A stretch of DNA of 62,375 bases, the filler included, from Aduncisulcus paluster (Eukaryota), in NCBI GenBank assembly GCA_024181965.1. It is 5 parts of 5 records of this genome, joined end to end, with 100 filler letters (N's around TTAATTAATTAA, not from the genome) between each part and the next. Parts side by side here need not be neighbours in the genome. Positions count along the whole stretch, not along the records: positions 1 to 25,374 come from BQXS01009964.1; 4 more parts are not named here. One strand, given 5' to 3'. The stretch's first letter is position 1. Each line of letters opens with the position of its first letter. Under the pieces are notes generated by a model. It was not told the DNA's origin. It worked only from the letters and a program-made list of their open reading frames with translations, and ran no database searches. Made by a program: the position numbers and the translations under genes. This document shows positions 1 to 57,492 of the stretch, piece by piece.

Positions 1-489
1 TGATAAATCAGGATTCTCGACTCGATCTAATGCTGCCTCAACCCTCGTACGGAAGGAGTCAACGCTGATCCCTTGAAGAAAATACTTCTTCGTCAGAGCA
101 GGGGAGGGTCGTTCTTCCTCAGCCACCAGTCGAATCGTCTTCCGGAATTGTTTAACGTAAATGGCTACAGCTTTTTCGGTTACCTCAGTCAAAACAAGCT
201 TCTCGAAACGGTAAAGGGCATCAAGTCCAGATAATTTCCCAAAGAAAGATGAAACAGCCTCAACAAAAGTAGACTCAGAGGCTCGAACTTCTTCAGGAGT
301 CATATCCTCGGGATTAGGTAACTTAACATGGCAAACGTCTTCGTAGATGGATAAGATATCCAAATCAATCAGAGTATACATGTCAGCAGTACCATGTCGT
401 GCTCGGTATTGTTCGTAAGCAGATTCAAAACGAGCGAAGTCTTTTTGCGAATAAAGAGCCAGAAAAGGGGGTCTTAGTGAGTCAGACAT
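1..489 (-). CDS. Gag-like protein of an LTR retrotransposon, running off the window start
   Basis: Manual translation from ATG at 489: MSDSLRPPFLALYSQKDFARFESAYEQYRARHG...KKYFLQGISVDSFRTRVEAALD, open to base 1. The N-terminal P-x-L...F..F...Y..Y...G pattern is shared with ORFs at 11495, 17674 and 25883. Confidence 0.6.
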   Translation of the reverse strand, partial: MSDSLRPPFLALYSQKDFARFESAYEQYRARHGTADMYTLIDLDILSIYEDVCHVKLPNPEDMTPEEVRASESTFVEAVSSFFGKLSGLDALYRFEKLVLTEVTEKAVAIYVKQFRKTIRLVAEEERPSPALTKKYFLQGISVDSFRTRVEAALDRVENPDLS

Positions 490-763
490 TTTTTGGTGAT
501 TAAGATCTTAATGTGCCAGTAATGCTTGAGTCAAATTTATTAGAAATATTTCAACAGCGTTCATCTATAAATAGAACATCGAGAAAGAAGTAAAACGATA
601 ATAAAAGTAGATAAAAGGTCTTAGTGAGTCAGACATTTTTTGGTGATTAAGATCTTAATGTGCCAGTAATGCTTGAGTCAAATTTATTAGAAATATTTCA
701 ACAGCGTTCATCTATAAATAGAACATCGAGAAAGAAGTAAAACGATAATAAAAGTAGATAAAA
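470..763. repeat. Perfect 147-bp tandem duplication covering the gag start codon and upstream region
   Basis: 470-616 is identical to 617-763 (ggtcttagtgagtcagacat...aaagtagataaaa). Confidence 0.9.
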
Positions 764-957
764 TATAATTATAGAAATAAATTATAAGCTGTTATAATTT
801 ATTTCAAGTCTAATACACCACAAGAAAGGCAGCCAGAGTGTGGGTCCTGGAGTAGAGAGTTGGGATAGGTCAGCAGAGATCTCTATCATCTCTCCGGCGA
901 GAGCGATGATGAGGTCAACCGAGGGGAGCTCGAAATCCTCGGCATGGGCATCAGCCA

Positions 958-1130
958 CTATGCCGAGGTTTCGCCAGAAAGTTGGAATGTCACAAGAAAG
1001 ACACCTGAGCAGAAACCACTTGGTGTTGACCAAGCAACCTCAGAGAAGAACGAATTTGGGCAGCAGCTATGGTTGGCAAAATGCCCTACCCCTTTAGAGA
1101 TTGCGGAGGGCAGAATAATTCTGTCACCAA
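958..1130 (-). pseudogene. Frameshifted C-terminal part of the SET domain
   Basis: GVGHFANHSCCPNS matches the SET NHSC-x-PN motif and lies in the adjacent frame directly after the YR-SET ORF. Confidence 0.8.
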
Positions 1131-2353
1131 AGGACATTATGTCCTTCGATGACCGAACGTGTTTCCTCTGATGACAGAATTTTCCTGGCACCAACGTGAC
1201 AGGTGAGGCCAGAGAACTCACACAGAAAGGTTTTTGCAGGAACAGCAACCTTCGTCTTCAGACAAAACCCCACTTCATAATTCTTCCAAGCAGCATAAGT
1301 CAGTGGGGTCTCCCAAAGACTCAGGGAAACGTCCCCATAATCATGACCATCGATTCTAACCAGCAGGTTAGGGTAAGTACAAAGGGTCATGACGTGTGAG
1401 CCAACGGTTCTTGCTACTTCTTCGTCGGTCGGATTTCGCCTAGGGCGACAGCAAAGTTTACCGACGTAAGCGGCGAGGACAGAGTTCTTGTTGACACTTC
1501 TCCCCCTTACAAAAACACCCTTCCCCATTTCCGAAGTCTCACGAACCTCCACTTTCCGTTCAGTATCACTAAACAGTTGCATAAAAGTCCTTTTAGCAAT
1601 CTTCGGAAGTGTACCCACACGAGCTTTACACAGATGAGAAAGAGCGAGAGGAGAAGCATTGGGGTAAACCAGGGAACAGATCTTCTTGTCAAGATCAGAG
1701 AGAGGAACAAGGGGAGGAATCTTCAAAGAAGACAGAGATTCGGAAGCAGTTTCCAAAAAATTCAACCAATCTTCCTTATCTCCAGAAACAGCGCAAGTTC
1801 TATCCAGGTAGATTTGCGTTGTTTTCGAATCAGAGTGCCTTCCCAATTGTCTTAGTTGCCCTTCATCCCCACCAAGCAAACGGTACACACCAAGCATTGT
1901 CCGCTTTAGAGAGTGAGGTTTGACATCAGTTCCCGCGGCACCTTTATACACACGTTTCAGAGACTGATAAAAAGTGCTTCTACGGTCTTCTACATCCTCA
2001 AAAAACAGAATAGAGTCCTCGCAGGAGTGTCCAGAAGCAGAGTGACACTTCTTGAGGAGCTCAAACGTGTTATTGAGGGCAAGAACAACATTCCGACGCA
2101 GAAAAGTAGGGAGAAAAGACAGTAGATTGGTTCCACTTTGTTTAACCACAGCACTCTTACAGGCAAAGTCCATGTAAGGCTCAGAAATACCAAAGTGGCA
2201 CTCGGAAAACTTCACGTTAGAGAGATCACCACCCCGAAGACACAAGAAGAGCTGACAAGAGAAAGCTAACAAATATTGTATAGCTTTCTCTCTTCTCTCA
2301 ACATCAAGGGCACAGGAAAATTTTGACAAAATATCATCAAGGATCTTCTCCAA
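1124..2353 (-). CDS. Tyrosine recombinase (Crypton/DIRS-like YR domain) fused to a SET domain
   Basis: YR catalytic signature LRGGDL...KPHSLKR...LGRHSDSKTTQIY, followed in frame by a SET N-terminal motif VEVRETSEMGKGVFVRGRSVNKNSVLAAYVGKL and a second one, GFCLKTKVAVPAKTFLCEFSG. The frame continues upstream past a single TAA (2408-2410) into ORF 2408-2875. Confidence 0.8.
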   Translation of the reverse strand: MEKILDDILSKFSCALDVERREKAIQYLLAFSCQLFLCLRGGDLSNVKFSECHFGISEPYMDFACKSAVVKQSGTNLLSFLPTFLRRNVVLALNNTFELLKKCHSASGHSCEDSILFFEDVEDRRSTFYQSLKRVYKGAAGTDVKPHSLKRTMLGVYRLLGGDEGQLRQLGRHSDSKTTQIYLDRTCAVSGDKEDWLNFLETASESLSSLKIPPLVPLSDLDKKICSLVYPNASPLALSHLCKARVGTLPKIAKRTFMQLFSDTERKVEVRETSEMGKGVFVRGRSVNKNSVLAAYVGKLCCRPRRNPTDEEVARTVGSHVMTLCTYPNLLVRIDGHDYGDVSLSLWETPLTYAAWKNYEVGFCLKTKVAVPAKTFLCEFSGLTCHVGARKILSSEETRSVIEGHNVLW

Positions 2354-2871
2354 GACATTGAGAGGGACAACAGGGGGAGGACGAGAGGGTGTCTTTTGGG
2401 GAGGCAGTTAGGGAATCAAGGATAAACTTTTCCTCGGGAGTGAAGAAGGGCAAGTCACGAAGAACCATTTTGAGTCGACCATAAAGAGAGGTCGACAGGT
2501 AATGTTGGGCAGAGCATTACGAAAACGGCGAGAGAGGAAAGTGTATAACTCCTTAAGGAGACGTAGGCTCTTGCCACTCTCTTTCAGAAACTGGGAAACA
2601 GCAGAAAATGAAAAATCACTACAGAGAAGGTCCTGAAAGTGCGGAAAGACAGTGGGATCAGCTACCGAACGGAGTCGGTGAGAGGACGCAATAGTGGCCT
2701 TAAGAGGCAGAAAGTCGGAGACAAAGGGTGGGGATTTAGTCCCGCATTTACACTTGATGAATAACTGCCTTTCGTGCTTAAATCGGAGTTCATATCCTTC
2801 CAGCGAGTCATCATTCACCATTGGGATTTTTTCATTTAGCTTGTTTATCTCCTTGAGTAGAGTTTGTTCTC

Positions 2872-3906
2872 TCATTTTCCCATTATTCTTCTTCTTTCTT
2901 CCTTACGTTGGATAGCCTCGATATGATGGCTTGAATGGCCGATTCCTGCCATGTGAGCTCGTCCGGCATCGCCGTATGCAATCAGAAGCTTCTTTTTCTC
3001 GTCCCCTGCCAGACGGACCAAGATGCTCCCGAAACGCATTACAAAGGAATTTTTTCTAATTATGTTACCAAATTTATGGCGTCTGAACACTGGGGCTTCG
3101 CGTAATTTTGAAAGTGAATCCCAATGGTGAAGGAGCTGCTTAAATCGGAGTTCATGTCCGTCCAACGAGTCATCCTTCACCATTGGGATTTTATCTTGGA
3201 GCTTATTGATCTCATTGATAAGAGTTTTTTCTCTCACTTTTCCGTTCTTCTTCTTCTTTCTTCCTCTCCTTTTCTTTCCTCTTCGCTTTCTTCTTCCTCC
3301 TTTCTTCTTTTCTTCTCTCTCTTTCTCTTTTTCTCTTTGCCAAGGAAAAAAGGCCTTTCTTCCTCTTCCTCTACATCTTTTTGAAACAAGATATCCCCCA
3401 CCATCAACAATTGTTCTTAAGGAGGGAAGGCTCATGTTGACGGTAGGGGATAACTCTAACTATCTGGTCTTTGATGTGGCTGTGGTACTGTTCGGAACCA
3501 GATATCACAGCCACACCAATAGGGAACTTATTCCAGGGTCTAAGCCCACACACATCACTGGAGAAGAAATAAGAGGAGGAGCAAGTGGTGATGAAGATGG
3601 AGTTGAAGAAGAAGTAGGAGCAAGAGAAGAGGAAAGAGACGAATAAGGGCTGGATCGGCTTGGGAACCCAAACAGAGTTCTCGTACTGATTCCATCCGTA
3701 TGGATGGAAAGTACCCCACAAGAACTCCGTTTGGGTTTCTCTACTTGGTTTCTAAACGTTTTTAACCTCTTGCCGAGGAGTTTCTTTCCTTTTTCGCTTA
3801 ATGTTAGTGGACGAGAAGTACAGGGGCGAGGGAGGGGATGAAATGCGGGGGAACCTTTGGTGTGGGGTAGAAGAGGGGGGACACGAATTTGGTTGGGGGG
3901 GATCAC
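2872..3906 (-). pseudogene. Fanzor1 (eukaryotic TnpB-like RNA-guided nuclease) remnant, C-terminally truncated
   Basis: Motifs in order: AFHPLPRP, SIHTDGISTRTLF (3691-3699), RuvC-I CVGLDPG (3532-3546), FRRHKFGNIIRK, LLIAYGDAG (2968-2982). ORFs 3505-3906 and 2872-3435 share a frame split by two stops. No RuvC-II/III motif was seen. Confidence 0.75.
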
Positions 3907-4088
3907 ACGTGCTATTGTGATAAAGGATTCTGTCTCTTAATAGCCGAATGTGTAGATGTCTCAATGAAAGATCATCTGACAAAAACGAAAAATATATTTA
4001 AAAAAAGGGCATTCCTATATATTTGTAAATCCTCTTGGGTCCAATCATGATGATGATTTCTTCCTCTTCATCCTCTTCTTCCTCTTCG

Positions 4089-5744
4089 TCAATATAATCG
4101 GCCGAGATCGTGGGCAGTGGTGTTCACGTAATTACCCTCGCTATGACTCAAGGGACTATCCCGGAGAAGAGTCCCTTCTTCACCACAGAACGCACCCATA
4201 TCGTCATCATCCCATCCTCCATCTGCACCAAACTCCTCCCCACACCCATATGGATCGGAGATCATCCCATTTTGGGGGATAGCACACGGCCAGTCAACCG
4301 AACCTTCTCTGACAACTTCCAGGACCTCAGAATCCCTGGTAATATTGATAGCGAAGTCAACCTTCTCATTGTGCTTTTCAAATGTCATTGAAAACTCAGG
4401 AAGGGAAGAAGAAGGTTGAACATCGCTCGCCAGCGCCATCTCGTATTTCGAGACACCCTCACCATTCACCAAGAAGTCAACAAGCCAATAATAGCCTCTT
4501 TAGGACTTACAGATTGACTCTCAAAAGAAAAATGACAATGTTGGAAAAGATGATCCGGCAAGAAACAAGGAACACCAAGATCACTCCTCCAACACGACTG
4601 TTTTCTTCCGACCTTACCCTGTCGAGATGCAAAGGTTTTCATACCCCGGAAAGACCGAACGACACTCCCTCTGGACCCAACTTTCACATCCTCTTCATGA
4701 AAGAGGAGATCAATCAGGTCCATAACAGAGCATCGACGGGCTTTACCATCGACTACGACCTTCACACTGAACATAGTGTATGGGTGATAGGACCTAATGA
4801 AAGGAACATTAAATACCCTTCGTAACACCGCAGAAACCCACATAAAATTGGAATTCATGAAAGCAAAGCGAGAAATATCAACGTCAGCTCCAATGGGAGT
4901 ACCGTGGGAAAAGGCACAGAGCTGTTCAAACAACATATCATAGACATTATCAGACTTCAACATCTCGTTGTCCAAAGGAGGCAAACAAACCTGTTTACCA
5001 TCTTTAATCAGAGATTTACGCATCGAAATACCAGAGAATGAGGGATGAAGAGCCTTACCACATCTAACCACTCGTTGAAGAGAAGACTCGGCAATGGGGC
5101 CATATTCAACGGGGACAGAATCACGGCTAGGAAGAGACACGCAAAAAGAACGATCTCCAGAAGGGGAGCAACGGAAGGGATAACGGATATCTCCAATGTC
5201 AAAGGGTCCAAGCAAACCTTGAATGACAGAATAAATCTGCTCCATGCAGAAAAGAAAACGATGCCTTGAGATCACAGATGACTGGACATCAATGTCTTTG
5301 TAGGTAGAGTCGAGCTCTCCAATGAGGCTGAGCTGCTCAGATTCAGATTTTCCGTAATCCAACACCCTCCCCACAGACGTGGGTAGAAATGGATAAGCCT
5401 CGAGCACGGCAAATCTGCTTGATACCAGCTATGGCGTCGGTAGGATCATCAACTGAAACGGAAGCAAGCTCAGCCATAGCTGCTGATAGCCTGGCAAGCT
5501 CTTTCTTCACGTGAGCCATCATCACAGCCTTCAAGTGTGAGGCATGCTTCTGAGGAGAAAGGAGATCACGAAGAGAAGCAGCTACACTTGGAGAAGCGGA
5601 TGGCCTGCAGCTTAGAAAGGTTCCAGGGGTCTCAGAAAGGGGATTAACACATTTTGTTATCTCTTTTAGAGAGGATTCGACATATGATATATTATGTAAT
5701 TTTCTTAGTAATTTATCTTCAAGTCGTGGTACATCATGCCACAC
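4089..5744 (-). pseudogene. Unknown element-encoded protein in three overlapping ORFs (5343-5744, 4466-5407, 4089-4472)
   Basis: Consecutive overlapping minus-strand ORFs consistent with one frameshifted gene; no recognised domain. Confidence 0.4.
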
Positions 5745-5939
5745 GATGAGGACATATGATATGTTATGTCTTCAAGTCGTGGTACACCATGCCACGTGTT
5801 GAAGTACAGTATAGTGGATATATTTTACTCAATATACTTTGAACATATTGAACAACGATTTCTGGTTGAAGAAAGACATTGTTTGCACATAGGATTATTG
5901 CAGGATGGACAAATCTTGCAAACTGTTTTCAATTGACAT

Positions 5940-6275
5940 CTACACGTCATTGTACTTTCCTTTTCTTCCTCTTCTTCCTTTTCTATCTTCAATTAACTTT
6001 TTTTTCTTATATTCAACCTGTTTTCTTTTATAATCATTTTTCCAATCAATCAAAGTATCATACATTAATAATGGAGAGTGAAATTGCGATTTTAAGAATC
6101 TCCTCAACCAACTTTCAGAGATCTTAGGGATTTTATGCTTAAGATTGGTCGTTGGATGAATTTTTAGCACACTATTTGCAAGTGAGACGAAAGTTTTTAT
6201 ATCTACAGGCCATTTTGTATACGATGGCGTTCTTAACTCTATCCTCGCAATACAATAGTGTTTGAGGATATTCAA
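5940..6275 (-). pseudogene. CENP-B/Tc5 (pogo-type) helix-turn-helix fragment
   Basis: KISESWLRRFLK resembles the S-x-G/S-W-L-x-R-F motif of HTH_Tnp_Tc5. Confidence 0.5.
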
Positions 6276-6538
6276 TACAATTTCCTTTTTTTACCTTTGA
6301 TTTTTTATCCTCTTTTCTCCCCATTGCAAAGAAAACAACAAATTTTTTGAAAATCTGATCTACATTTTTTCGAAAAAATTCTCGATTGAATAAGATGTCC
6401 ACGGCAACCAGCCAAAAGTCTTGCTTGGATATCTCCACACTTTTGTCTAACCCTGTGCTGAGAGTAAAAAGTATTCAGTAAGTCAATTTATTATAAACAA
6501 CGGAATCCCACTGCCTTCTAACTGTTTTCTCTACCCTT

Positions 6539-7516
6539 TCACCAAGGGGATTTCCTTGATAAGGCAACCCTAAGGTAGTTTTGGGCCTTATCAAGCATCT
6601 CCTCGCTCTCTTCCTCTTCCTCTTCTGCAGAAGGGAGCTGGTCTTTGATAATGTTTAGAAACACTTTGTAAAAATCTATGTCCTTCGCATCTAGAGAGAG
6701 ACAGAGAGAGAGAGGAAGTAAGATTAGAATTAACAAGAAGTAACAGAATTAACATTAGAAGTAATAGAAGTAATTAACAGTACGTACCGACATTAACAAT
6801 GCATTCCATACATGCGTCTATACTATCTAGGAAATAAAATGGAATTAGGGACGACGGATAGTGTATATCGCCATCAGGAGCCCATTGTACAGGCACACTT
6901 GGAATTCCACCAAGTATAATGCTTTGCTCGAACATTACGGCAGTAATTGAATACATAATTGAATTTTTATCGTGGGAAAAATAAATAAAATTGTCCATCT
7001 CCTCGTTAAATAAATTACTACTAGTAATAGTATCTAAATCGCCATCTTCAGCAGATAGTTCCCCTTCGAATGAACATAGTGGAGTAGATGGTGGTGGAGT
7101 AGATGGAAGTGGCACGCAAATGGAGCTGTAGAAAGAGATCTTTGAATAAGAAAATCATGGGAACGACGATAATAATCAAGACAAACATCCTCATCTTTAT
7201 CAAGCAGTGGAAGTCCCACTAAGACAGTGTGAGATTCTGGGAACAACAAAAGAGGTTGATACAACATTGAACCATCTGCGTGGGTTTCTTTGAGCCGTAG
7301 ATACCCTTGACATGGGCTGTCATCATCACCACAATGCCATGCACCTGGGAGGTCAATGTCTTTCCACGGAACAATGGTTCTTAGACAAATCGGATTTGTA
7401 CATTGAATCGAATAATGACAATTCCTAATGTTATCAACGGTGGAATCTTTGTGGAGGAAGGGTGTCAGATCCACACTTTCTTTTCGAAATCCACCTTTCT
7501 TAGTTTCAACGTACAC
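6539..7516 (-). pseudogene. Element-encoded protein with a CW-type zinc finger; spliced and frameshifted
   Basis: YSIQCTNPICLRTIVPWKDIDLPGAWHCGDDDSPC resembles zf-CW. The downstream ORFs 6774-7115 and 6539-6736 join in frame across an intron. Confidence 0.45.
6691..6787 (-). other. Spliceosomal intron (97 nt)
   Basis: Minus strand GTACGT...CTAAT...pyrimidine tract...CTAG. Removal joins ...CIVNV|DAKDIDFYK in frame. Confidence 0.7.
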
Positions 7517-8067
7517 ATCTTTAAAAAGATGTCTTCAACAATTGAATATTGTTATTCATATGGGGAAAAAGTTATGAGAACAGTTGTAAGAATGGATCAC
7601 CTCTAGGTAGCAAGCCCTTTCACAAGGAATAAGTGCTGATATTATACCCTTACGATCAAGATCTTCAATAGAAAGCACCCTAAAGGTTTCAGTGGGATAG
7701 TCTCCCTGAATCTCAGCGACATAGAACTCTTTCCGACAGTTGGGGCATTTTTTATAAGGCAGGTCTAGGATGTAGGNNNNNNNNNNNNNNNNNNNNTCAA
7801 CGTACACATCTTTAAAAAGATGTCTTCAACAATTGAATATTGTTATTCATATGGGGAAAAAGTTATGAGAACAGTTGTAAGAATGGATCACCTCTAGGTA
7901 GCAAGCCCTTTCACAAGGAATAAGTGCTGATATTATACCCTTACGATCAAGATCTTCAATAGAAAGCACCCTAAAGGTTTCAGTGGGATAGTCTCCCTGA
8001 ATCTCAGCGACATAGAACTCTTTCCGACAGTTGGGGCATTTTTTATAAGGCAGGTCTAGGATGTAGG
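7506..8067. other. Assembly overlap duplication around a 20-N gap
   Basis: 7506-7776 is repeated at 7797-8067 on either side of the N run. Confidence 0.9.
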
Positions 8068-19946: not shown

Positions 19947-20400
19947 TTAGGGATCCATTTTAAACAAATAGCGCATAATTAGTGCCGTTAGGGCCTTACT
20001 TATATCATGGTGTTGCTGCCTATAGAGGGGCATGAGGGCATCACCCCCCCCAAGGACGTGGTTTTGGGAGTTTGTTCCGTGGCATAGTGGACAGTTCGTC
20101 GGTGTCGTTGGTCTGGCTGTTAACATGTGTATTCTCGTGGACATAAAGCTCGGAAAAGCATGGAAAAGTCGCTGACTAATCGGCGATTCCTTGAAGTATG
20201 GTGCTTCCTGGCCGGTCCATTCATGTGCCGCCCATGCAGCCAGTGTACTCTTTCTTCTGTGTGTTTCCAGAGCGATAGTGTCCTTAACAGTTTTTAATTC
20301 TTCCCATGTGTTTTCACTTTCATCGTATCCAAGCCATTTGACGAAAAATTCCAGATTCTTCTTTGTCTCTCCACGATGATTTTTAATATACTCTATACGA
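19947..20400 (-). pseudogene. Second RLE non-LTR retrotransposon fragment
   Basis: STRIHML...CPLCHGTNSQNHVLGG...QHHDISK, paralogous to 18305-18987. Confidence 0.75.
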
Positions 20401-20412
20401 TATTCTCCCTCA

Positions 20413-21060
20413 CTAGAGGCAGCTATATCTCTCTAATTCTTCTAAAGAATGGCTTCCTTTGACTGGGACTAATCGTTTGATATGCACCTTCAGTGTTTTA
20501 TCATCGTCGATCAGTGATCTGATTTCGACCCTATTGCATTTCAGTGGATCCACCACCTTAAAGGGGCTTCTCATTCTTGCAGATAGTTTTGAAGCTTTTT
20601 TGTGAGGCAATAACCATACAAATTGATCTTTTTCTACTGAATCCATTATCAATTCCTTCTTAACTTCCTCTTGAATTCTTTTGGCTTGTTTTGCCAAATA
20701 AACCAATAAATCTCTATGCTCTTTCATGAAAACAGCCGCATTCTCCTTTGATTTCTTCGATCCTAAATGAACTTCCAGCTCTTCGACATTGTTCGTAAAC
20801 AAATCGAATAATTTAGTGGGATCTCTCGCGAACACCATTTCAAAGGGTGTGAATCCCGTAGCGGAACACTGCTGAGTATTCATCAAAAACTGTATTTGAG
20901 GCAAAACTAAGTCCCAATCATATGGACCGGTTCCATTAGCCAGCATAGCTCGGAGGAACTTTAATAACTCTCTGTTGGATCTTTCCACAATGCCATTCGA
21001 TTGTGGGTTGTGAGATATAATCCTATGGTGTTTTACCCCTAAACAGTGGTTGAGATTCGC
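20413..21060 (-). pseudogene. LTR retrotransposon integrase (rve core C-half and GPY/F region)
   Basis: HNPQSNGIVERSNRELLKFL, WDLVLPQIQFLMNT...ATGFTPFEMVF, KLSARMRSPFKV. Confidence 0.9.
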
Positions 21061-22045
21061 TGTTGTCATCTTTTTCAACGAGTGAGGCTCCAACTGATTC
21101 ATGAGAGGTCTGACTTGTATATTCCTGAGAGTATTCATCGAAGTACGAATATTGGGATGATGCAGTTTCTGAAGAAGATGTAGTTTCTCGCGTTGTATCG
21201 GAGGAGCTGTGGGAGGTCACTGGTGTGCTGTCAGGTGTGTGTAAAGATTGCTGGAGTTCAACATTGATGGTTCTTGACTGAGTTGGGTGCCAGGTTGAGG
21301 GGGAACTTGCCTGGGTGGTTGGATGTCTGATACGGATTGGGGTAGATGGAGATCTAGCTTGAATAGAAACTGCTGTTCGACCCTCGGCTTGATGTAGGGT
21401 TGACACTATGAGTGGGAGAGCTGGTGATTCTGGGGGAGAGAGAGAGATCGTTGCCTTCGTGTATTACACTCCTGGGGTGAAGTGCTAGGTTGTGATGATT
21501 GCAAGCGTATTTCCGTTGTCGGCCTTCTGGGTGCCGATAGTTCAGATAGGGAGGAATCACGTCGACTTATCTGGGTGGATGAAGTTGACGGGACAAGGGA
21601 TCGTCCAGAGGTTGTTACGGCTGTCGCTTCACTGTCATCTTGTGGTGACGAGTGGAAGACTGTCCTGTTTTCTCGGATGAATGCTCGCATTGATTGTGGT
21701 AGACGGCTGAGGTCCGTTCTCGTAACATAACCGATGTGGGAGACATGATGGGTAGTGTTTGTCGGACAAACTTTGTCCCTTGTGAGTGATGAGCTTCTGG
21801 TGTCCGTAGATTATATCTCGGCAGGTGTCGCATTTATACTTGGCGATGCAGATCCTTGTGCATTTGCATTTCTTCTTTCTTGAATGCATTCGAAAGTTGA
21901 TAAATCCTTCCCAATAACTGCCACAGGAGCAAATAATTTCATCTGTGATCGTCGGTTCAGTCGACATGAGATGTCTGTAAGCAAAATTGCAAACAGAAAT
22001 TAAAAGAAGTTTGGTGGATGTATTTCTTACAAATAATTCATACAT
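21061..22045 (-). pseudogene. Zinc-finger plus Ser/Thr/Pro-rich N-terminal region, probably of a non-LTR retrotransposon
   Basis: CSCG...MH and CDTC...ITH zinc-finger-like motifs followed by frameshifted low-complexity ORFs. Confidence 0.4.
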
Positions 22046-22773
22046 TACATTTAAGGAGTACAGAAATTCTAATATTCGAATTATCAGCCCAGCAGGAGTT
22101 AACTTAGGGAATACTTGATTAAATTCTGATCAGAGCAAATGAACATTATATATAAAAGAAATAGGTAAAATTAAGTTATTAATTTGATCTTAAAGTTAAT
22201 TTAAGGTTTGAACGCATTGAAATAATAGTGTATAAGACTTTTCATTGTCACAATGAAAAGAGTGAATATGTCGGAGGTACAAACCATATAATCTTGTAAT
22301 TCATAACGATTATATGATAGGGATCTTAAATATCTCTATTCTAAAAAAGACAAAAAGTATAGTGAAAGACAAAGAGTATACTTCATATCTGACCTTGATC
22401 CTTCGTCTCACATCGAAGAAGAAATTTAAAATAAATAGCGATAAATTAGGATTTTATTGAACTTTGCCCCTAAATAATCCTTTTATCAAGGAGATAGTCC
22501 CCTGCACCAATGGATACAATTATCAAAAAAATAAAAAATACGTATATTCTAACTTTAAGTCCCTTTTATTTATTTGTTACAAACAAATTACGAGTAGTAA
22601 TTCATAATTCTACACATGATTCAGCCCGCCATTTCCAATTTGAGTATTTTTTCCCTTTTTGTTTACATTATAATAATTGTTGTATGTTAACTTTACGATT
22701 TTATATTTTTTTGTTCTTTACTAAAGAACTACTATAGTATAGTAGGGATACATTTATTGAGGTTTTACCCGTT

Positions 22774-24880: not shown

Positions 24881-25374
24881 AACTTATGAGAAGCCGGAAC
24901 AAGCGGGAAGAAAGAGGCTCGAGCCGTAAGCTTTGGTATTTTTAGGTGTTCATCTCTCTGAGGAGAGTTGCATCGATGGCAATAATGGAATACATGAACC
25001 TGTATATATCGTTCACCATTCCATAGAGGTGTGACTGACTAGAAAGAGGACATTACAAAATGAATCAAGGGAACGTGGTACCGATGATTCATTAAATGAA
25101 CAGCAAAAGAGAATTTTAATTCTCGAAAAGTGGGCATACGAGGATAAACAGTTGAAGAGGCCACACCGAACAGGCAGCGCAGAGGTTGGTGGGCATGTAG
25201 GTTTGTTCACATTAATTCAAACGCTCACAAGAATCTACATGCCACCCAGAAGGAATAAGGTTAAAACGATCAGAAATGAAGAAGAACTGGGTACTAACAA
25301 AGAAGAAGAAGAAGAGTCAAAAGAAGAAGTACAAGCTTCTCAAGACGAGGAAGCATCAGCTGAGAGAATTACAG

Positions 25375-25474
25375 NNNNNNNNNNNNNNNNNNNNNNNNNN
25401 NNNNNNNNNNNNNNNNNNTTAATTAATTAANNNNNNNNNNNNNNNNNNNNNNNNNNNNNNNNNNNNNNNNNNNN
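25375..25474. other. Artificial contig linker
   Basis: N run containing TTAATTAATTAA (stops in all six frames). Confidence 0.95.
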
Positions 25475-26449: not shown

Positions 26450-29400
26450 TTATTCGGCTTTTCTCGCGAGATCACTTTCCTTGGCCTTCTTTCTCAGGAA
26501 ATCTTCACTTTCCTTTCCAGTCTCCTTCACTAAGAAAGCGAATTCGCCTTCCTTTTCCAAGAGTTCATGGGGAGATCCAATTTCAAGAACCCGACCGTCA
26601 CCAAGAACCATGATACGATCAAAATCGATAACAGTGTGAAGACGGTGAGCAACAGTAAGCAAAGTACAATGAGAGAATTCCTCTCTCAAGACCTTTTGGA
26701 TGGCAGTATCACTTTCGTTGTCGAGAGAAGCTGTGGCTTCATCAAGCAATAAAATCTTGGACCCAACGAGAAGAGCACGGGCGAGACAAACAAGCTGACG
26801 CTGACCTTGACTGAGATTTGACCCATTATCGGCAATCTTCATGTCTAATTGGTCTTTTTGCTCGGAAACATAGGTATCAAGAGAAACTTTGCGAAGAACT
26901 TCCCAGAGCTCCTCATCAGAAGGAACAGGCCTCGTCAGAACACGAGAACAGTAAAAAGCAGACTCAACGTCATCCAGACCATGCTTTCCAGTTCTGGCAA
27001 GAGAAATAGGGTCAAGATTATCACGAAGAGTTCCAGAGAACAAGAACCCTTCCTGTGGAATAACAGAGAGAATAGAACGAGCATCGTGAAGTGGCAATGT
27101 ACTCAAATCAACTCCATCAACAAGGATTTGACCTGCCTCAGGCTCAACGATACGAAGAAGAGCAGTTATGAGTGAACTCTTTCCACTTCCTGTCTTTCCA
27201 CAAACACCAAGCTTCTCACCAGGTCTCAGAGTAAATGAGATACCATTCAAAACAAGAGGGAGTTTAGGTCTGTATCTCATATAAACATCCTTGACACAGA
27301 TTTCTCCCTTGCTGGGCCAAGCATCTGGAGCAGGAACACAGTGGGTGTAGCGTCTAATGTAAGTGTCATCCTCGCCCTCTTCCTCAGACTCTCCACGGAC
27401 AGCATAATCCTCCTTCTGAGCGTCAGATACATCAATGGCGCTGGGAGTCACGGGGGTGGCAAGAACGGAGCTACTCTTCATAGCTCTAATTTTAAGCTTT
27501 TCACTTTCAATATCTACAAACTGGCTTTCCATTTCAACATTGGTTGAGTATTCAGTAATTCTCTCAATACAACTTGAATCAGCCTGCAACTGAGCGAGCA
27601 TTTGGACGAGGTAAACGACAAGGTATATGAAGGAAACACTATAAGCGACAGCCATTCCAGCGTACTCAATACCCCAACCATGGGATACCAAAAGAATAAG
27701 GAAAGCGATCACAGAGAATTGGAGTAGAGCTCCACACAAAGACAGTCTGAAAGAGATCCAATTAAAGGAAACGATGAAAGGATAAGCAGCTTTCATGTGG
27801 GTTTTCAATATTGAATCATTTTCCTCACGGATACGATCCACAGCATTGAAAGCACGAACGCTGACAATTCCAGCCATTGTTTCATTGCATTTTGACACAA
27901 TGGGACTCCTTGTCTTCACTTCATTACGCTTGAGCTCACGAACACCAGAGGAGTACAGGCCCAACAGAACAAAGAAGATGATAGCAATGAGAATAAAGAC
28001 AAGCAACACAGGTGGGACGGCAATCCCTTGCATGATAATCATGGAGGCAAGCATCAAACCGATTCCAAGAAGACTCATTAGTGTGGAAGGAATCTGAGAG
28101 TCTAAAGTTGCAGTATCCTTGGAGAAACGGTTAACAATACGACCAATTGGAGTTGTCTCAAAGAAACGCATGGGGGCTTTCAGGATCCTTGTTAGCATTT
28201 TGATCATCATAGTCTGTGAAGCCTTAACACAAGCAAGCATAAGAATGATTGTGGCGATGAATGAGAAAAGAAGGGCAACAATAGCCAACAGACAATAAAC
28301 TGTAAGACCATTCCATTCTCTTCCAAAGATGTAAGTATCGCCAAGAGACCAATCAGCGATCCATGAATCCAAGAGACGCCCAAACGTTTGTTGAAGAGCA
28401 AGGAATACGGCGGCAACAATGACATTTCCAATTCCGGCACTGGCAATGAAAGCACCATAATTGGAGGCCTTAACAGCACCATGGGCATGCTCTTCCCGAG
28501 AAATGAGTTTATCGACGGCAGAATCCTTTTTAGCAAGGGAAGCATGATAATCCTTCATTGTCAATATCTTCTTCCGAGAAACCTTTTCAGATTCAGAATC
28601 CACGGTCTCTTCTGACTCTTCATCTTGCTCAAAGACACCCTCGAGTTCAATTCCTTGGCTAACAATCTCGGAATAGGAACCATCTGCGTGAACTTTCCCG
28701 TCTTTCAGAGCAATGACACGATCTGAACGAGGCAGATACTGAACTTGGTGAGTCACAAGAAGGATGGTACGACCCTTGAGAATCCCACAAAACACATCGT
28801 CAACAAGTCTCTTAGCAACATGGGCATCCACGGCACTCAGGGGATCATCAAGAAGAAGTATATCCGAATCACTATACACGGCACGGGCAAGAGAAACACG
28901 GGCCTTTTGTCCACCACTTAGTGTGAATCCCTTCTCTCCGATTTCAGTGAGATCACCATTCTTAAGCTGAATGAGATCAGGGACAAGACAACAGGCCTCA
29001 ACAATACGTTCGTATTTCTCCTTCTCATATGGCATTCCGAAGAGAATATTATCCCTGACAGAGGCGTTGAGGATGAAAGGTGTCTGTGAACTGTAAGAAA
29101 CAGATCCGTTTATAGTTACCGCACTCCAGGGTTCCTCGGCAACAGGTTGAACGGGTCTAGAAGAATGAATATGAGAGGCATCAACATCTCTTGGTTCAAC
29201 CACACGGCTGACAGGACGGCCAGAGGGAATCGGGATGGCAGGAGACTGGCTTCTTCTGTTTCCTCAACTCGGTCTTGGGAATGACGGGGAATGGCTCCGG
29301 CAGGAACAACATTAAGCTCCCCGAGAAGACTCATCAGGAAACTTGTCTTTCCACACCCAACTTTTCCCACAATGGTAGAAAAAGTCCCGTGTTTAATAGA

Positions 29401-31140
29401 AATATTGATATCCTTGAGCACAGGGTTGAATTCCTCTGGCTTCTCAGCTTTTCCCATGATGGTCTGAATGTACTCGACAGAAGGTGTTTGAGTGCCAGGG
29501 GAGGCTGAGGAGGAGGCTGAGGAGGAGGCTACAGCAGGGGAGATGGAACCAGAACGCACAGATTTACCACCACTTCCACCACGAGCCATGAATAGAGATT
29601 TGGAGGGTTTCTTCAAGGAAGCATCTTCAAGCTTTCTCTTGAGGAAATCCTTGAAAGAAGGGAGTTCAATCCCAGAATCCTTGTTATATGTAGCCTTCAT
29701 AAGTCCATATTCCACCTTGGCCCGAGCAGCAATGGCTTTGATCTCAGGTCCCTTCATTTCACGGGAAAAGAGCACAAGTTTAAGGTCTCTATCGATTCCA
29801 GACTTCCATTCAAATGACACAGGTCTAGACATCTTCAGGACAACGTCTCCCTGAGCGGGCTTCTTCTTGGGATCATAGGTACTCTTAAAAGCATGTTCAT
29901 CCTTCTCTGGGAGTGATAAGAATCCCCCAATACGATCACTGGACACTTTCATCTCGGCGAACATGACAAACATCATTGGAAGCATCTGGAATGGGCCACG
30001 TAAAAGGCCGAATAGAGTGATGGATTGGTAGACGACAACAGGGTTCAATTCATTACCCATAAGAGTGTAGGAAAGGAAAGTGAACAACAAAATGATGATA
30101 TCAAGGGAGGAGAAGAAGGCCATGATGACGGAACGAGAGATAGAGATGGCACGAACGTGTTTCATCTCTTCTTTACGTTTTTCACTGATTCTCTTCCACA
30201 TGGCACCTTCGTATGCGTACATTTTAATTGTCTTTATACCATTTAACACCTCAGTTGTCTGTCTAACACGTTCATCAGCCTCCTTCATCTTTCCCTTGAA
30301 GTTTGAAACCATAAACTTAATAAAGATGATGAGAACGGGCATAAGAACGAGAGCAGAACCAACACCAATCAGAGAAGAGACACCAATGTAATCCAAGAGC
30401 AGAATAATGGCAACAACAAGAGTGAGGAAAGAACCAATGAGATCAGGGAAGAATCCATACATTCTCTCCATTCTAGATGTATCATTTAGCATCAAATTGA
30501 TGACATTTCCACTAGATGCCTGAGATCGAGCTGCTTCACGGAGTCTAAGAACTTTGTTAAATAGAGTGCGGATGGTTCCAATACGACCCCTATGACCAGC
30601 ACCATATGATAAATAGGCAGAAACTGCCTTGAAATAATTACCCAAAAGAGCACCAACCATCAAAATACCAGCATAAATGAATCCTTCATAAAATGGAAGA
30701 GTGGGGGATGGGAGGGCTCTATCATAAATACATGTAAGAATCTTTTTGAGGAAAATAGAGGGAAGAAATTGGGTTCCAACATAAATAAAACTGAAAGGAA
30801 TGGCCAGAGCATAACGGAGTTTGTTCATAGCAAAGAAAGTACGAGGAACGGACCCGAAGCGTTTTTTTTCTGTCTTAGTTTTCTCAAAATTTTCGACAAA
30901 TTCCTTGTTAAGGATCTTGGGATCCCATTCTGATTTGATATCAGGCATATTTTCAACCTCCATAGATCCATTCTTCTTTGCATAGTGAAATAAAGGAGAT
31001 AGCCACGAAAATGTTCCATTAACAAACATATTATGTTTAATTTCAACATTTTCAAGGACTTCTACAGTCTCAGAATCACCCTTATCCTCCATATCAGGAG
31101 AACTAGGTGATCTGGCAACTGATAATTCTTGTTCAACCAT
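26450..31140 (-). CDS. ABCC/MRP-family full ABC transporter (TMD-NBD-TMD-NBD), split by one frameshift near 29250
   Basis: Walker A GKVGCGKT and GKTGSGKS, signatures LSGGQKARVSLAR and LSQGQRQL, Walker B LLLDD and LLLDEAT. The two ORFs 29116-31140 and 26450-29203 overlap. Confidence 0.93.
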
Positions 31141-31487
31141 AAAAATTCAATATAAAGGTTGGAAGCAAAAGAATATCAATCGAATGACAACAAAAATGTG
31201 GATTACAACTCAAATCAACGAATCAAGATCAATGATATCTACCGACTCACTCGAAATCAACAAATATTTTACAAAATAGAAAAGAATTAATGAAATTTAT
31301 TCCCATAAAACTCATGTTCACATATAGAAGAGATGCAATTCATAATTTCACCTGCAGAATGCAGATCAATGTTTGAGCATGCCCTATTGACAAAATTTTA
31401 AAATCAAGGGAATATTCTCATTATTATAACATATATATGCAAGATAAACCCCACAAAAAAGTTGAATATGAATCACAATCATGATAC

Positions 31488-32612: not shown

Positions 32613-32712
32613 NNNNNNNNNNNNNNNNNNNNNNNNNNNNNNNNNNNNNNNNNNNNTTAATTAATTAANNNNNNNNNNNNNNNNNNNNNNNNNNNNNNNN
32701 NNNNNNNNNNNN
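32613..32712. other. Artificial contig linker
   Basis: N run with TTAATTAATTAA. Confidence 0.95.
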
Positions 32713-45917: not shown

Positions 45918-46017
45918 NNNNNNNNNNNNNNNNNNNNNNNNNNNNNNNNNNNNNNNNNNNNTTAATTAATTAANNNNNNNNNNNNNNNNNNNNNNNNNNN
46001 NNNNNNNNNNNNNNNNN
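45918..46017. other. Artificial contig linker
   Basis: N run with TTAATTAATTAA. Confidence 0.95.
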
Positions 46018-57392: not shown

Positions 57393-57492
57393 NNNNNNNN
57401 NNNNNNNNNNNNNNNNNNNNNNNNNNNNNNNNNNNNTTAATTAATTAANNNNNNNNNNNNNNNNNNNNNNNNNNNNNNNNNNNNNNNNNNNN
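57393..57492. other. Artificial contig linker
   Basis: N run with TTAATTAATTAA. Confidence 0.95.

Follow-up and report, generated by a model that had tools for sequence, protein, structure and literature searches.

Introduction

The primate gene SETMAR carries a DDE (mariner) transposase C-terminal to a SET domain and arose when a host gene captured a transposon. NHSCxPN names the SET signature, and the SET C-terminal motif, which contains the catalytic Tyr, is of the ELxF/YDY type. Here we analyze a locus of the fornicate protist Aduncisulcus paluster at which the reading frame of a tyrosine recombinase (YR) runs on into SET-like sequence. The locus lies in a stretch of 62,375 nucleotides (hereafter the window), composed of five parts from five records of GenBank assembly GCA_024181965.1, and the YR-SET remnant occupies its minus strand from 2875 down to 958, as defined by frame translation. 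We interpret it as a YR gene that is decayed, lineage-specific and Crypton-like and that bears a SET-like domain at its C-terminal end; most likely it was an element's recombinase gene. We give this reading a probability of roughly 55%.

Crypton extras comprise, as far as the excerpted text of Kojima & Jurka 2011 (PMC3212892) goes, GCR1_C in CryptonF, a conserved unnamed C-terminal region in CryptonS and a separately encoded C48/Ulp1 peptidase. GCR1_C and the C48 peptidase agree with the original prediction (a first reading of this DNA, from its sequence alone), according to which Crypton and DIRS-group YRs usually carry other accessory domains. Retrotransposons with DNA adenine or cytosine methyltransferases and chromodomains are described in the accessible portion of a preprint (bioRxiv 10.64898/2026.05.21.726589). 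Elements with chromodomains or DNA methyltransferases show genome parasites tuning the host epigenetic landscape. A full-text search of the literature, with matches judged on titles and abstracts, found no paper describing a YR-SET fusion.

Results

Locus and reading frames

YR and SET-like sequence formed one coding unit in this copy. The stop-free passage from a YR signature into SET-like sequence, which had been proposed originally, was recovered as a minus-strand frame of 427 codons (2407-1127). Only 20 stop-to-stop frames of at least 200 aa occur in all six frames of the window, the 427-codon frame among them; because such long frames are few, we regard it as real or recently real coding sequence. 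Its YR and SET-like parts both draw family-level matches, which places it beyond chance. An in-frame TAA, absent from the original prediction, directly precedes this frame. The features of the locus are as follows, with the basis of each in brackets.

2875-2873, minus strand: start Met (frame map)
2411..2875, minus strand: N-terminal part of the reading frame (frame map; region common to the paralogue fragment P0003)
2393..2458, minus strand: GT...AG interval of 66 nt holding the in-frame TAA (sequence; gene model P0002)
2407-1127, minus strand: main open frame, 427 codons, stop-free (YR domain, linker and SET-like sequence)
1703..2407, minus strand: YR catalytic domain (profile matches and alignment of catalytic residues)
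2236-2234, minus strand: Arg I in LCLRGGDL, R58 of the 427-aa frame (MAFFT and hhalign)
2158-2156, minus strand: candidate hairpin Lys (position in the YR domain)
1915-1913, minus strand: box II His of HSLKR, H165 (MAFFT and hhalign)
1906-1904, minus strand: Lys at the Arg II position, K168, codon AAG (MAFFT and hhalign)
1903-1901, minus strand: Arg one position after K168, within HSLKR (sequence)
1837-1835, minus strand: His at the His/Trp position, H191, in GRHSD (MAFFT and hhalign)
1810-1808, minus strand: Tyr nucleophile, Y200, in TTQIY (MAFFT and hhalign)
1526..1807, minus strand: linker from the catalytic Tyr to the first SET-like motif, about 95 codons (open in the main frame)
1271..1525, minus strand: first 'SET N-motif' region, GKGVFV...AAYVGKL...RIDGHDYGD, motif at about 1525-1450 (motif-level resemblance only)
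1039..1270, minus strand: SET-like core, second N-motif EVGFCL...FLCEFSGL, then NHSCCPN (Pfam, PDB and ESM Atlas)
about 1270-1200, minus strand: second SET N-motif, EVGFCLKTKVAVPAKTFLCEFSGL (main frame)
1257-958, minus strand: second frame, +1 relative to the main frame, carrying NHSCCPN and ending at TAG 960-958
1074-1054, minus strand: NHSCCPN (+1 frame, open reading frame (ORF) 1257-958)
958..1038, minus strand: truncated SET C-terminal part, ...GVFLVTFQLSGETSA, then TAG 960-958 (frame map)
2775..3265, minus strand: upstream rearrangement (direct repeat and comparison with P0003)

Four proteins were used: the read-through protein (P0001), the public gene model of this locus (P0002), the paralogue fragment (P0003) and a read-through of 961-1573 on the minus strand (P0004), in which an X was placed at the frameshift break (CGTT=X; CGTT is unique in that stretch).

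Tyrosine recombinase domain

The catalytic domain is matched by two PHROG integrase profiles, phrog_1 (expectation value (E) 6.4e-8, over P0001 residues 168-396, the entire domain) and phrog_216 (E 2e-5), and by the NCBIfam profile of archaeal XerA (NF040815, E 1.5e-4). An hhalign alignment of 141 columns, spanning Arg I through the Tyr, pairs it with E. coli XerD, P1 Cre, lambda Int and a Mesorhizobium phage recombinase (E 1.3e-4, probability 54%). The Mesorhizobium phage protein, a tyrosine recombinase, served solely as alignment partner; it was the top match (E 0.3) of a tblastn search against phages that gave nothing significant. The sole recombinase found in a PDB search was the XerC-like 4a8e of P. 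abyssi, over box II (E 1.4). As a lead only, the set labelled PF00589 was common to 18 of the 30 nearest ESM Atlas clusters, 21–26% of the members carrying the family in the listed clusters.

In both MAFFT and hhalign, R58, H165, H191 and Y200 align with XerD R148, H244, H270 and Y279, and in the MAFFT alignment R58 and H165 are identical in column. Judged by these alignments, the predicted YR domain retains Arg I, both His residues and the Tyr nucleophile. The second Arg is different: K168 occupies the column of XerD R247, Cre R292 and lambda Int R311, so that the catalytic Arg II of HxxR is replaced, and the box II sequence HSLKR singled out in the original prediction is confirmed by both aligners. 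Changes of Arg II to Lys reportedly cripple Cre and Flp. The AAG codon is one transition from AGG, and the Lys could be either decay or a feature of the lineage.

On the N-terminal side of the catalytic domain, Pfam gave nothing meaningful and no SAM-like core-binding domain match; on its C-terminal side, the linker has no Pfam family match. Further upstream, the ORFs at 3.4–8 kb and the P0003-like segment matched no family. We scanned 21 ORFs at 1–10.4 kb, most of them on the minus strand and the rest on the plus strand, and found no match to RVT, RNase_H or rve (integrase core). A DIRS/Ngaro-type retroelement is therefore unsupported, as reverse transcriptase, RNase H and integrase core are all missing from these ORFs. 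The same holds for the wider DIRS/Ngaro/VIPER type: the repeats nearby are only a coding 129-nt direct repeat and perfect, artefact-like duplications, with none of the terminal or split repeats of that type.

SET-like domain

The main frame holds the second N-motif, and a +1 frameshift located somewhere in 1146-1200 leads to NHSCCPN; a frameshift ahead of this motif was part of the original prediction. NHSCCPN follows FLCEFSGL by about 50 codons and aligns to the NHSC(S/E/R)PN of SETMAR, Set2-type, SUVH6 and H3K36 enzymes; the NHSCxPN signature thus stands at the proper distance from the E(Y/F)xG motif. Of the PDB matches that the X read-through drew at E<10, 12 out of 13 were SET lysine methyltransferases, the thirteenth being a portal protein. 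They were led by SETMAR (3bo5, E 0.026) and a Set2-type H3K36 enzyme (E 0.06), and included SUVH6, ASH1L and KMT2C. The piece with NHSCCPN, searched by itself, had four PDB matches, all SET enzymes. When the read-through is aligned to the Set2-type enzyme, EVGFCL...FLCEFSGL, NHSCCPN and ...SGE come in the same order and with like spacing, which is why the frameshift looks like a simple one-base event within 1146-1200. For residues 275-427, outside of which NHSCCPN lies, 22 of 30 ESM Atlas clusters were SET or PR; by the tool's own text, the scores concerned (0.91–0.93) are also reached by shuffled proteins 4–10 times in 100. PHROGs and NCBIfam gave no match for the SET part.

These alignments do not extend to the 'tandem' SET domains of the original prediction. 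Scanned alone (1277-1573 and 1199-1573), the first N-motif region gave no SET match at E up to 10, and every profile or PDB alignment begins at the second motif.

The catalytic C-terminal end of the SET domain is missing in this copy. The frame ends in QLSGETSA, followed by the TAG, and no ELxF/YDY-type motif occurs in any of the three frames just downstream of it. The Set2-type alignment stops at GE, directly ahead of the expected ELxF/YDY-type site.

A 24-nt inverted repeat was observed at 1111-1134 / 1164-1187, with both arms coding, 83% complementary and 29 nt apart. Its upstream arm (1164-1187) falls inside the frameshift interval, and the repeat may have arisen by chance or be left over from a quasi-palindrome mutation.

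Damage to the gene and its paralogue

The TAA at 2410-2408 sits within CTAAC (2411-2407), which lies 13 nt before the AG of the 66-nt interval (2458-2393), and the public gene model leaves out exactly the 22 codons of this interval. It may be a short intron; the alternative is a nonsense lesion. An alternative genetic code, with TAA as sense, was ruled out, given the many long standard-code frames with conserved domains in the window; in the excerpted text of PMC9161772, code reassignment among fornicates is reported in another lineage only.

The gene model itself, of 1846 aa, translates the NHSCCPN stretch out of frame and continues into the neighbouring gene. It joins at least three unrelated stretches (about 1-7500, minus strand), namely ORFs at 3.4–7.5 kb, the YR-SET remnant and ORF 1-507, and is plainly chimeric and untrustworthy as a single protein.

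The paralogue fragment P0003 comprises 244 aa from a 1,094-base contig of A. paluster. It aligns at 48% identity over 2722-2456, a stretch that lies entirely upstream of the YR domain. Such an alignment shows that a diverged paralogue of the N-terminal region exists and is a hint of multiple copies. The 129-nt direct repeat (2775-2903 / 3137-3265), coding and 86% identical, brackets a segment, MRFGSIL...KKKLLIAYGDAGRAHM, that has about 110 residues more in P0003. The present copy carries an upstream duplication and, relative to P0003, a deletion. The tail of P0003, VIRPLPILSSSQKFSIDSL, matches VLRDLPFFTPEEKFILDSL at 2409-2465, in a minus-strand frame other than that of the recombinase, and this suggests an extra frame change around 2409-2465 in one of the two copies, the locus or P0003.

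The marks of decay are thus the TAA, the +1 frameshift, the missing SET end, the 129-nt repeat and the deletion relative to P0003. The present copy is unlikely to be active, either as a recombinase or as a methyltransferase.

The announced A. paluster assembly is Illumina-only (MaSuRCA), with an N50 of 4.6 kb and a BUSCO score of 40% (PMC9933649). If the window belongs to it, these properties would account for the difficulty of finding repeats and paralogues.

Remainder of the window

Two perfect duplications were observed on the same scaffold. Positions 470-616 equal 617-763, a 147-nt tandem duplication (100% identical) over the start of the minus-strand ORF 1-507 (MSDSLRPPF...), whose probable source is either the assembly process or a very recent duplication event. 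Around the N gap 7777-7796, 204 nt are duplicated (7506-7709 = 7797-8000), doubling the peptide ...PYKKCPNCRKEFYVAEIQGDYPTETFRVLSIEDLD... in the gene model; this looks like an unmerged contig overlap.

An ORF with a Pfam Chromo match (E 5.3e-10) occupies 19947-20432 and closes a chain of five minus-strand frames that overlap one another (19947-22129). The pieces of this chain that were scanned gave no integrase or reverse transcriptase match, and the chain is either a chromatin gene that is split or contains introns, or the remnant of an element. An ABC transporter at 26450-31146, minus strand, is split over two overlapping frames and offers 27 frame-restoring GT..AG candidates with an ambiguous intron consensus. 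One of them measures 29 nt (GTAAC...TTACAG, 29119-29091), a hint that introns of A. paluster may be very short.

Paired runs of 44 N, 12 bases apart, were seen at 25375-25474, 32613-32712, 45918-46017 and 57393-57492. The first pair starts straight after base 25374, a position equal to the recorded length of the contig of P0002. The window consists of contigs strung together, and linkage across these runs is for that reason not physical evidence.

Discussion

Under the interpretation that we favour, a single long exon would have encoded the YR catalytic domain, a linker of about 95 residues and a SET-like lysine-methyltransferase domain. In an undamaged ancestor, DNA would have been cut and rejoined by the YR part via a 3'-phosphotyrosine intermediate, and the element would have left as a circle and then re-integrated, a route put forward for Cryptons. 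The SET part, having bound S-adenosylmethionine, would have methylated a lysine at the element, either on a histone tail or on another chromatin protein; alternatively, it might have acted as a chromatin-tethering module only. That lysine methylation was deposited at integration or excision sites, as the original prediction had suggested, is conjecture.

Several results weigh against this interpretation. The original prediction had counted on profile hits for Phage_integrase and SET. The YR domain has matches in PHROGs, NCBIfam and hhalign; in Pfam, both scores fall under the gathering cut-offs: Phage_integrase (PF00589) reached 16.5 bits (E 0.0074; cut-off 27.1) and SET (PF00856) reached 20.2 bits (E 8.1e-4; cut-off 22.4) on the X read-through, over profile positions 1-79 of 105, and E 0.26 on the unaltered piece. 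The SET match is borderline but coherent. AlphaFold2, run on the 427-aa frame as a single sequence, gave an unusable model (mean predicted local distance difference test score 34.8) that confirmed the fold of neither domain. The profiles DUF3504 (CryptonA), GCR1_C (CryptonF) and DUF3435 (Starship captains) had no match at E up to 1 in the frames or the gene model, which leaves the YR without a tie to a known eukaryotic YR element group. Among 1.84 billion protein representatives, phmmer (whose query took in about 140 residues of the SET-like part) found solely the gene model and P0003, and no other relative of either domain. Searches of metagenome contigs and viral contigs found no relative, and tblastn in the window found no second YR-SET copy. 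The combination of YR and SET is known from one copy only; termini, target sites and a second full copy were not seen, and mobility remains putative for this reason. Finally, the frameshift in the SET-like domain could itself be an artefact, since the scaffold shows the artefact-like duplications of 147 and 204 nt.

Some of these points would suit a host gene, live or recently live, in which a domesticated recombinase domain binds DNA and so directs a SET methyltransferase, the TAA lying in a real 66-nt intron and the frameshift being an assembly error. Such a gene would be analogous to SETMAR, with its SET domain and mariner transposase, and to the Crypton-derived DUF3504 genes. We consider it unlikely, while granting that the public annotation models a gene here whose splicing removes precisely the TAA-containing GT...AG interval, with its CTAAC 13 nt ahead of the AG, that assembly artefacts do occur on the scaffold, and that neither termini nor further full copies were seen. 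The excerpted text of PMC3212892 adds that the second Arg is lost in all domesticated DUF3504 domains, and Arg II is Lys here; unlike in DUF3504 genes, however, the Tyr nucleophile, both His residues and Arg I are kept at this locus. The annotated model is plainly chimeric, with NHSCCPN in the wrong frame, and a functional gene is also hard to reconcile with a SET C-terminal motif missing in every frame and with the rearrangement upstream, where a duplication and, compared with P0003, a deletion are seen. Illumina-only assemblies seldom contain single-base indel errors. If the window belongs to the announced assembly of that kind (PMC9933649), the frameshift is less expected as an indel error.

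The two domains might instead have met by accident, a recombinase element having landed beside or inside the remnant of an unrelated SET gene with a fortuitous common frame. The roughly 95 codons between them have no family assignment, the upstream region is rearranged, and the architecture turned up nowhere else in the window, the protein representatives or the metagenome and viral contigs. Unrelated decaying sequences would need the same frame at their junction and no stops, whereas here 427 consecutive sense codons take in the YR, the linker and a SET-like portion of about 140 codons; nor did the search of the protein representatives, with those residues in the query, return a similar host SET protein. 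We rate an accidental fusion as quite improbable. Least probable of all is that the C-terminal part is not derived from SET, NHSCCPN and the N-motifs being chance resemblances within a lineage-specific recombinase domain. The subthreshold Pfam scores on the read-through and the unaltered piece, the silence of PHROGs and NCBIfam on this part, the absent ELxF/YDY-type motif and the rate at which shuffled proteins reach the same ESM Atlas scores all leave room for it. Against it, the weak PDB matches are nearly all SET enzymes (12 of 13, and four of four), the N-motif, NHSCxPN and GE follow one another in the Set2-type alignment in the same order and at matching distances, and all seven residues of NHSCxPN stand exactly at the distance expected from the EFxG motif.

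We thus return to a decayed, Crypton-like YR gene with a SET-like extension as the best explanation of the locus. A bolder version, which we hold to be doubtful, is that fornicates harbour undescribed YR DNA elements with their own SET-type lysine methyltransferase, which would mark histones or another chromatin protein at the site of residence or movement, the window containing a dead copy. If true, such elements would be a protein-level counterpart of the retrotransposons that bear DNA methyltransferases; a YR joined to a histone-type lysine methyltransferase would extend the idea of epigenetic tuning by genome parasites to histone marks and to YR elements, and would parallel SETMAR from the opposite direction. 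The case consists of a single decayed copy, from a fragmentary assembly and from a protist lineage that has barely been sampled, and is for now a lead.

Comparison with known systems

The locus resembles Cryptons (F, S, A and I) in that the YR is the only recognizable enzyme of DNA breakage and joining, with no reverse transcriptase nearby, and in that Cryptons bear lineage-specific extra domains C-terminal to the YR, as described in the excerpted text of PMC3212892. It differs from them in that none of the Crypton extras named there is SET and in that the YR lacks a DUF3504 or GCR1_C match; the likeness is one of domain make-up.

Like the locus, the DIRS/Ngaro elements and the methyltransferase-bearing retroelements pair an enzyme for recombination or integration with an epigenetic module, be it a writer or a reader. 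In the methyltransferase-bearing retroelements, as far as the accessible portion of their description goes, the writers modify DNA rather than protein lysines, and the elements are retrotransposons with reverse transcriptase and RNase H.

The YR itself is closest to the Xer/integrase recombinases of prokaryotes and phages, to which its best profiles (phrog_1, phrog_216 and XerA) belong. It shares their co-linear order of Arg I ... HxLR ... GHS ... TTQIY, and its TTQIY is the same as in E. coli XerD. It is set apart by a long N-terminal part, the Lys at Arg II, the C-terminal SET-like extension at this locus and a eukaryotic context: the concatenated window also contains chromodomain, ABC transporter and kinase genes.

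With SETMAR, the locus has in common a SET lysine-methyltransferase domain and a transposon-derived recombination enzyme in one polypeptide, and the SET domain of SETMAR is the top PDB match of the read-through. The partner here, in contrast, is a tyrosine recombinase, and it lies N-terminal to the SET-like part.

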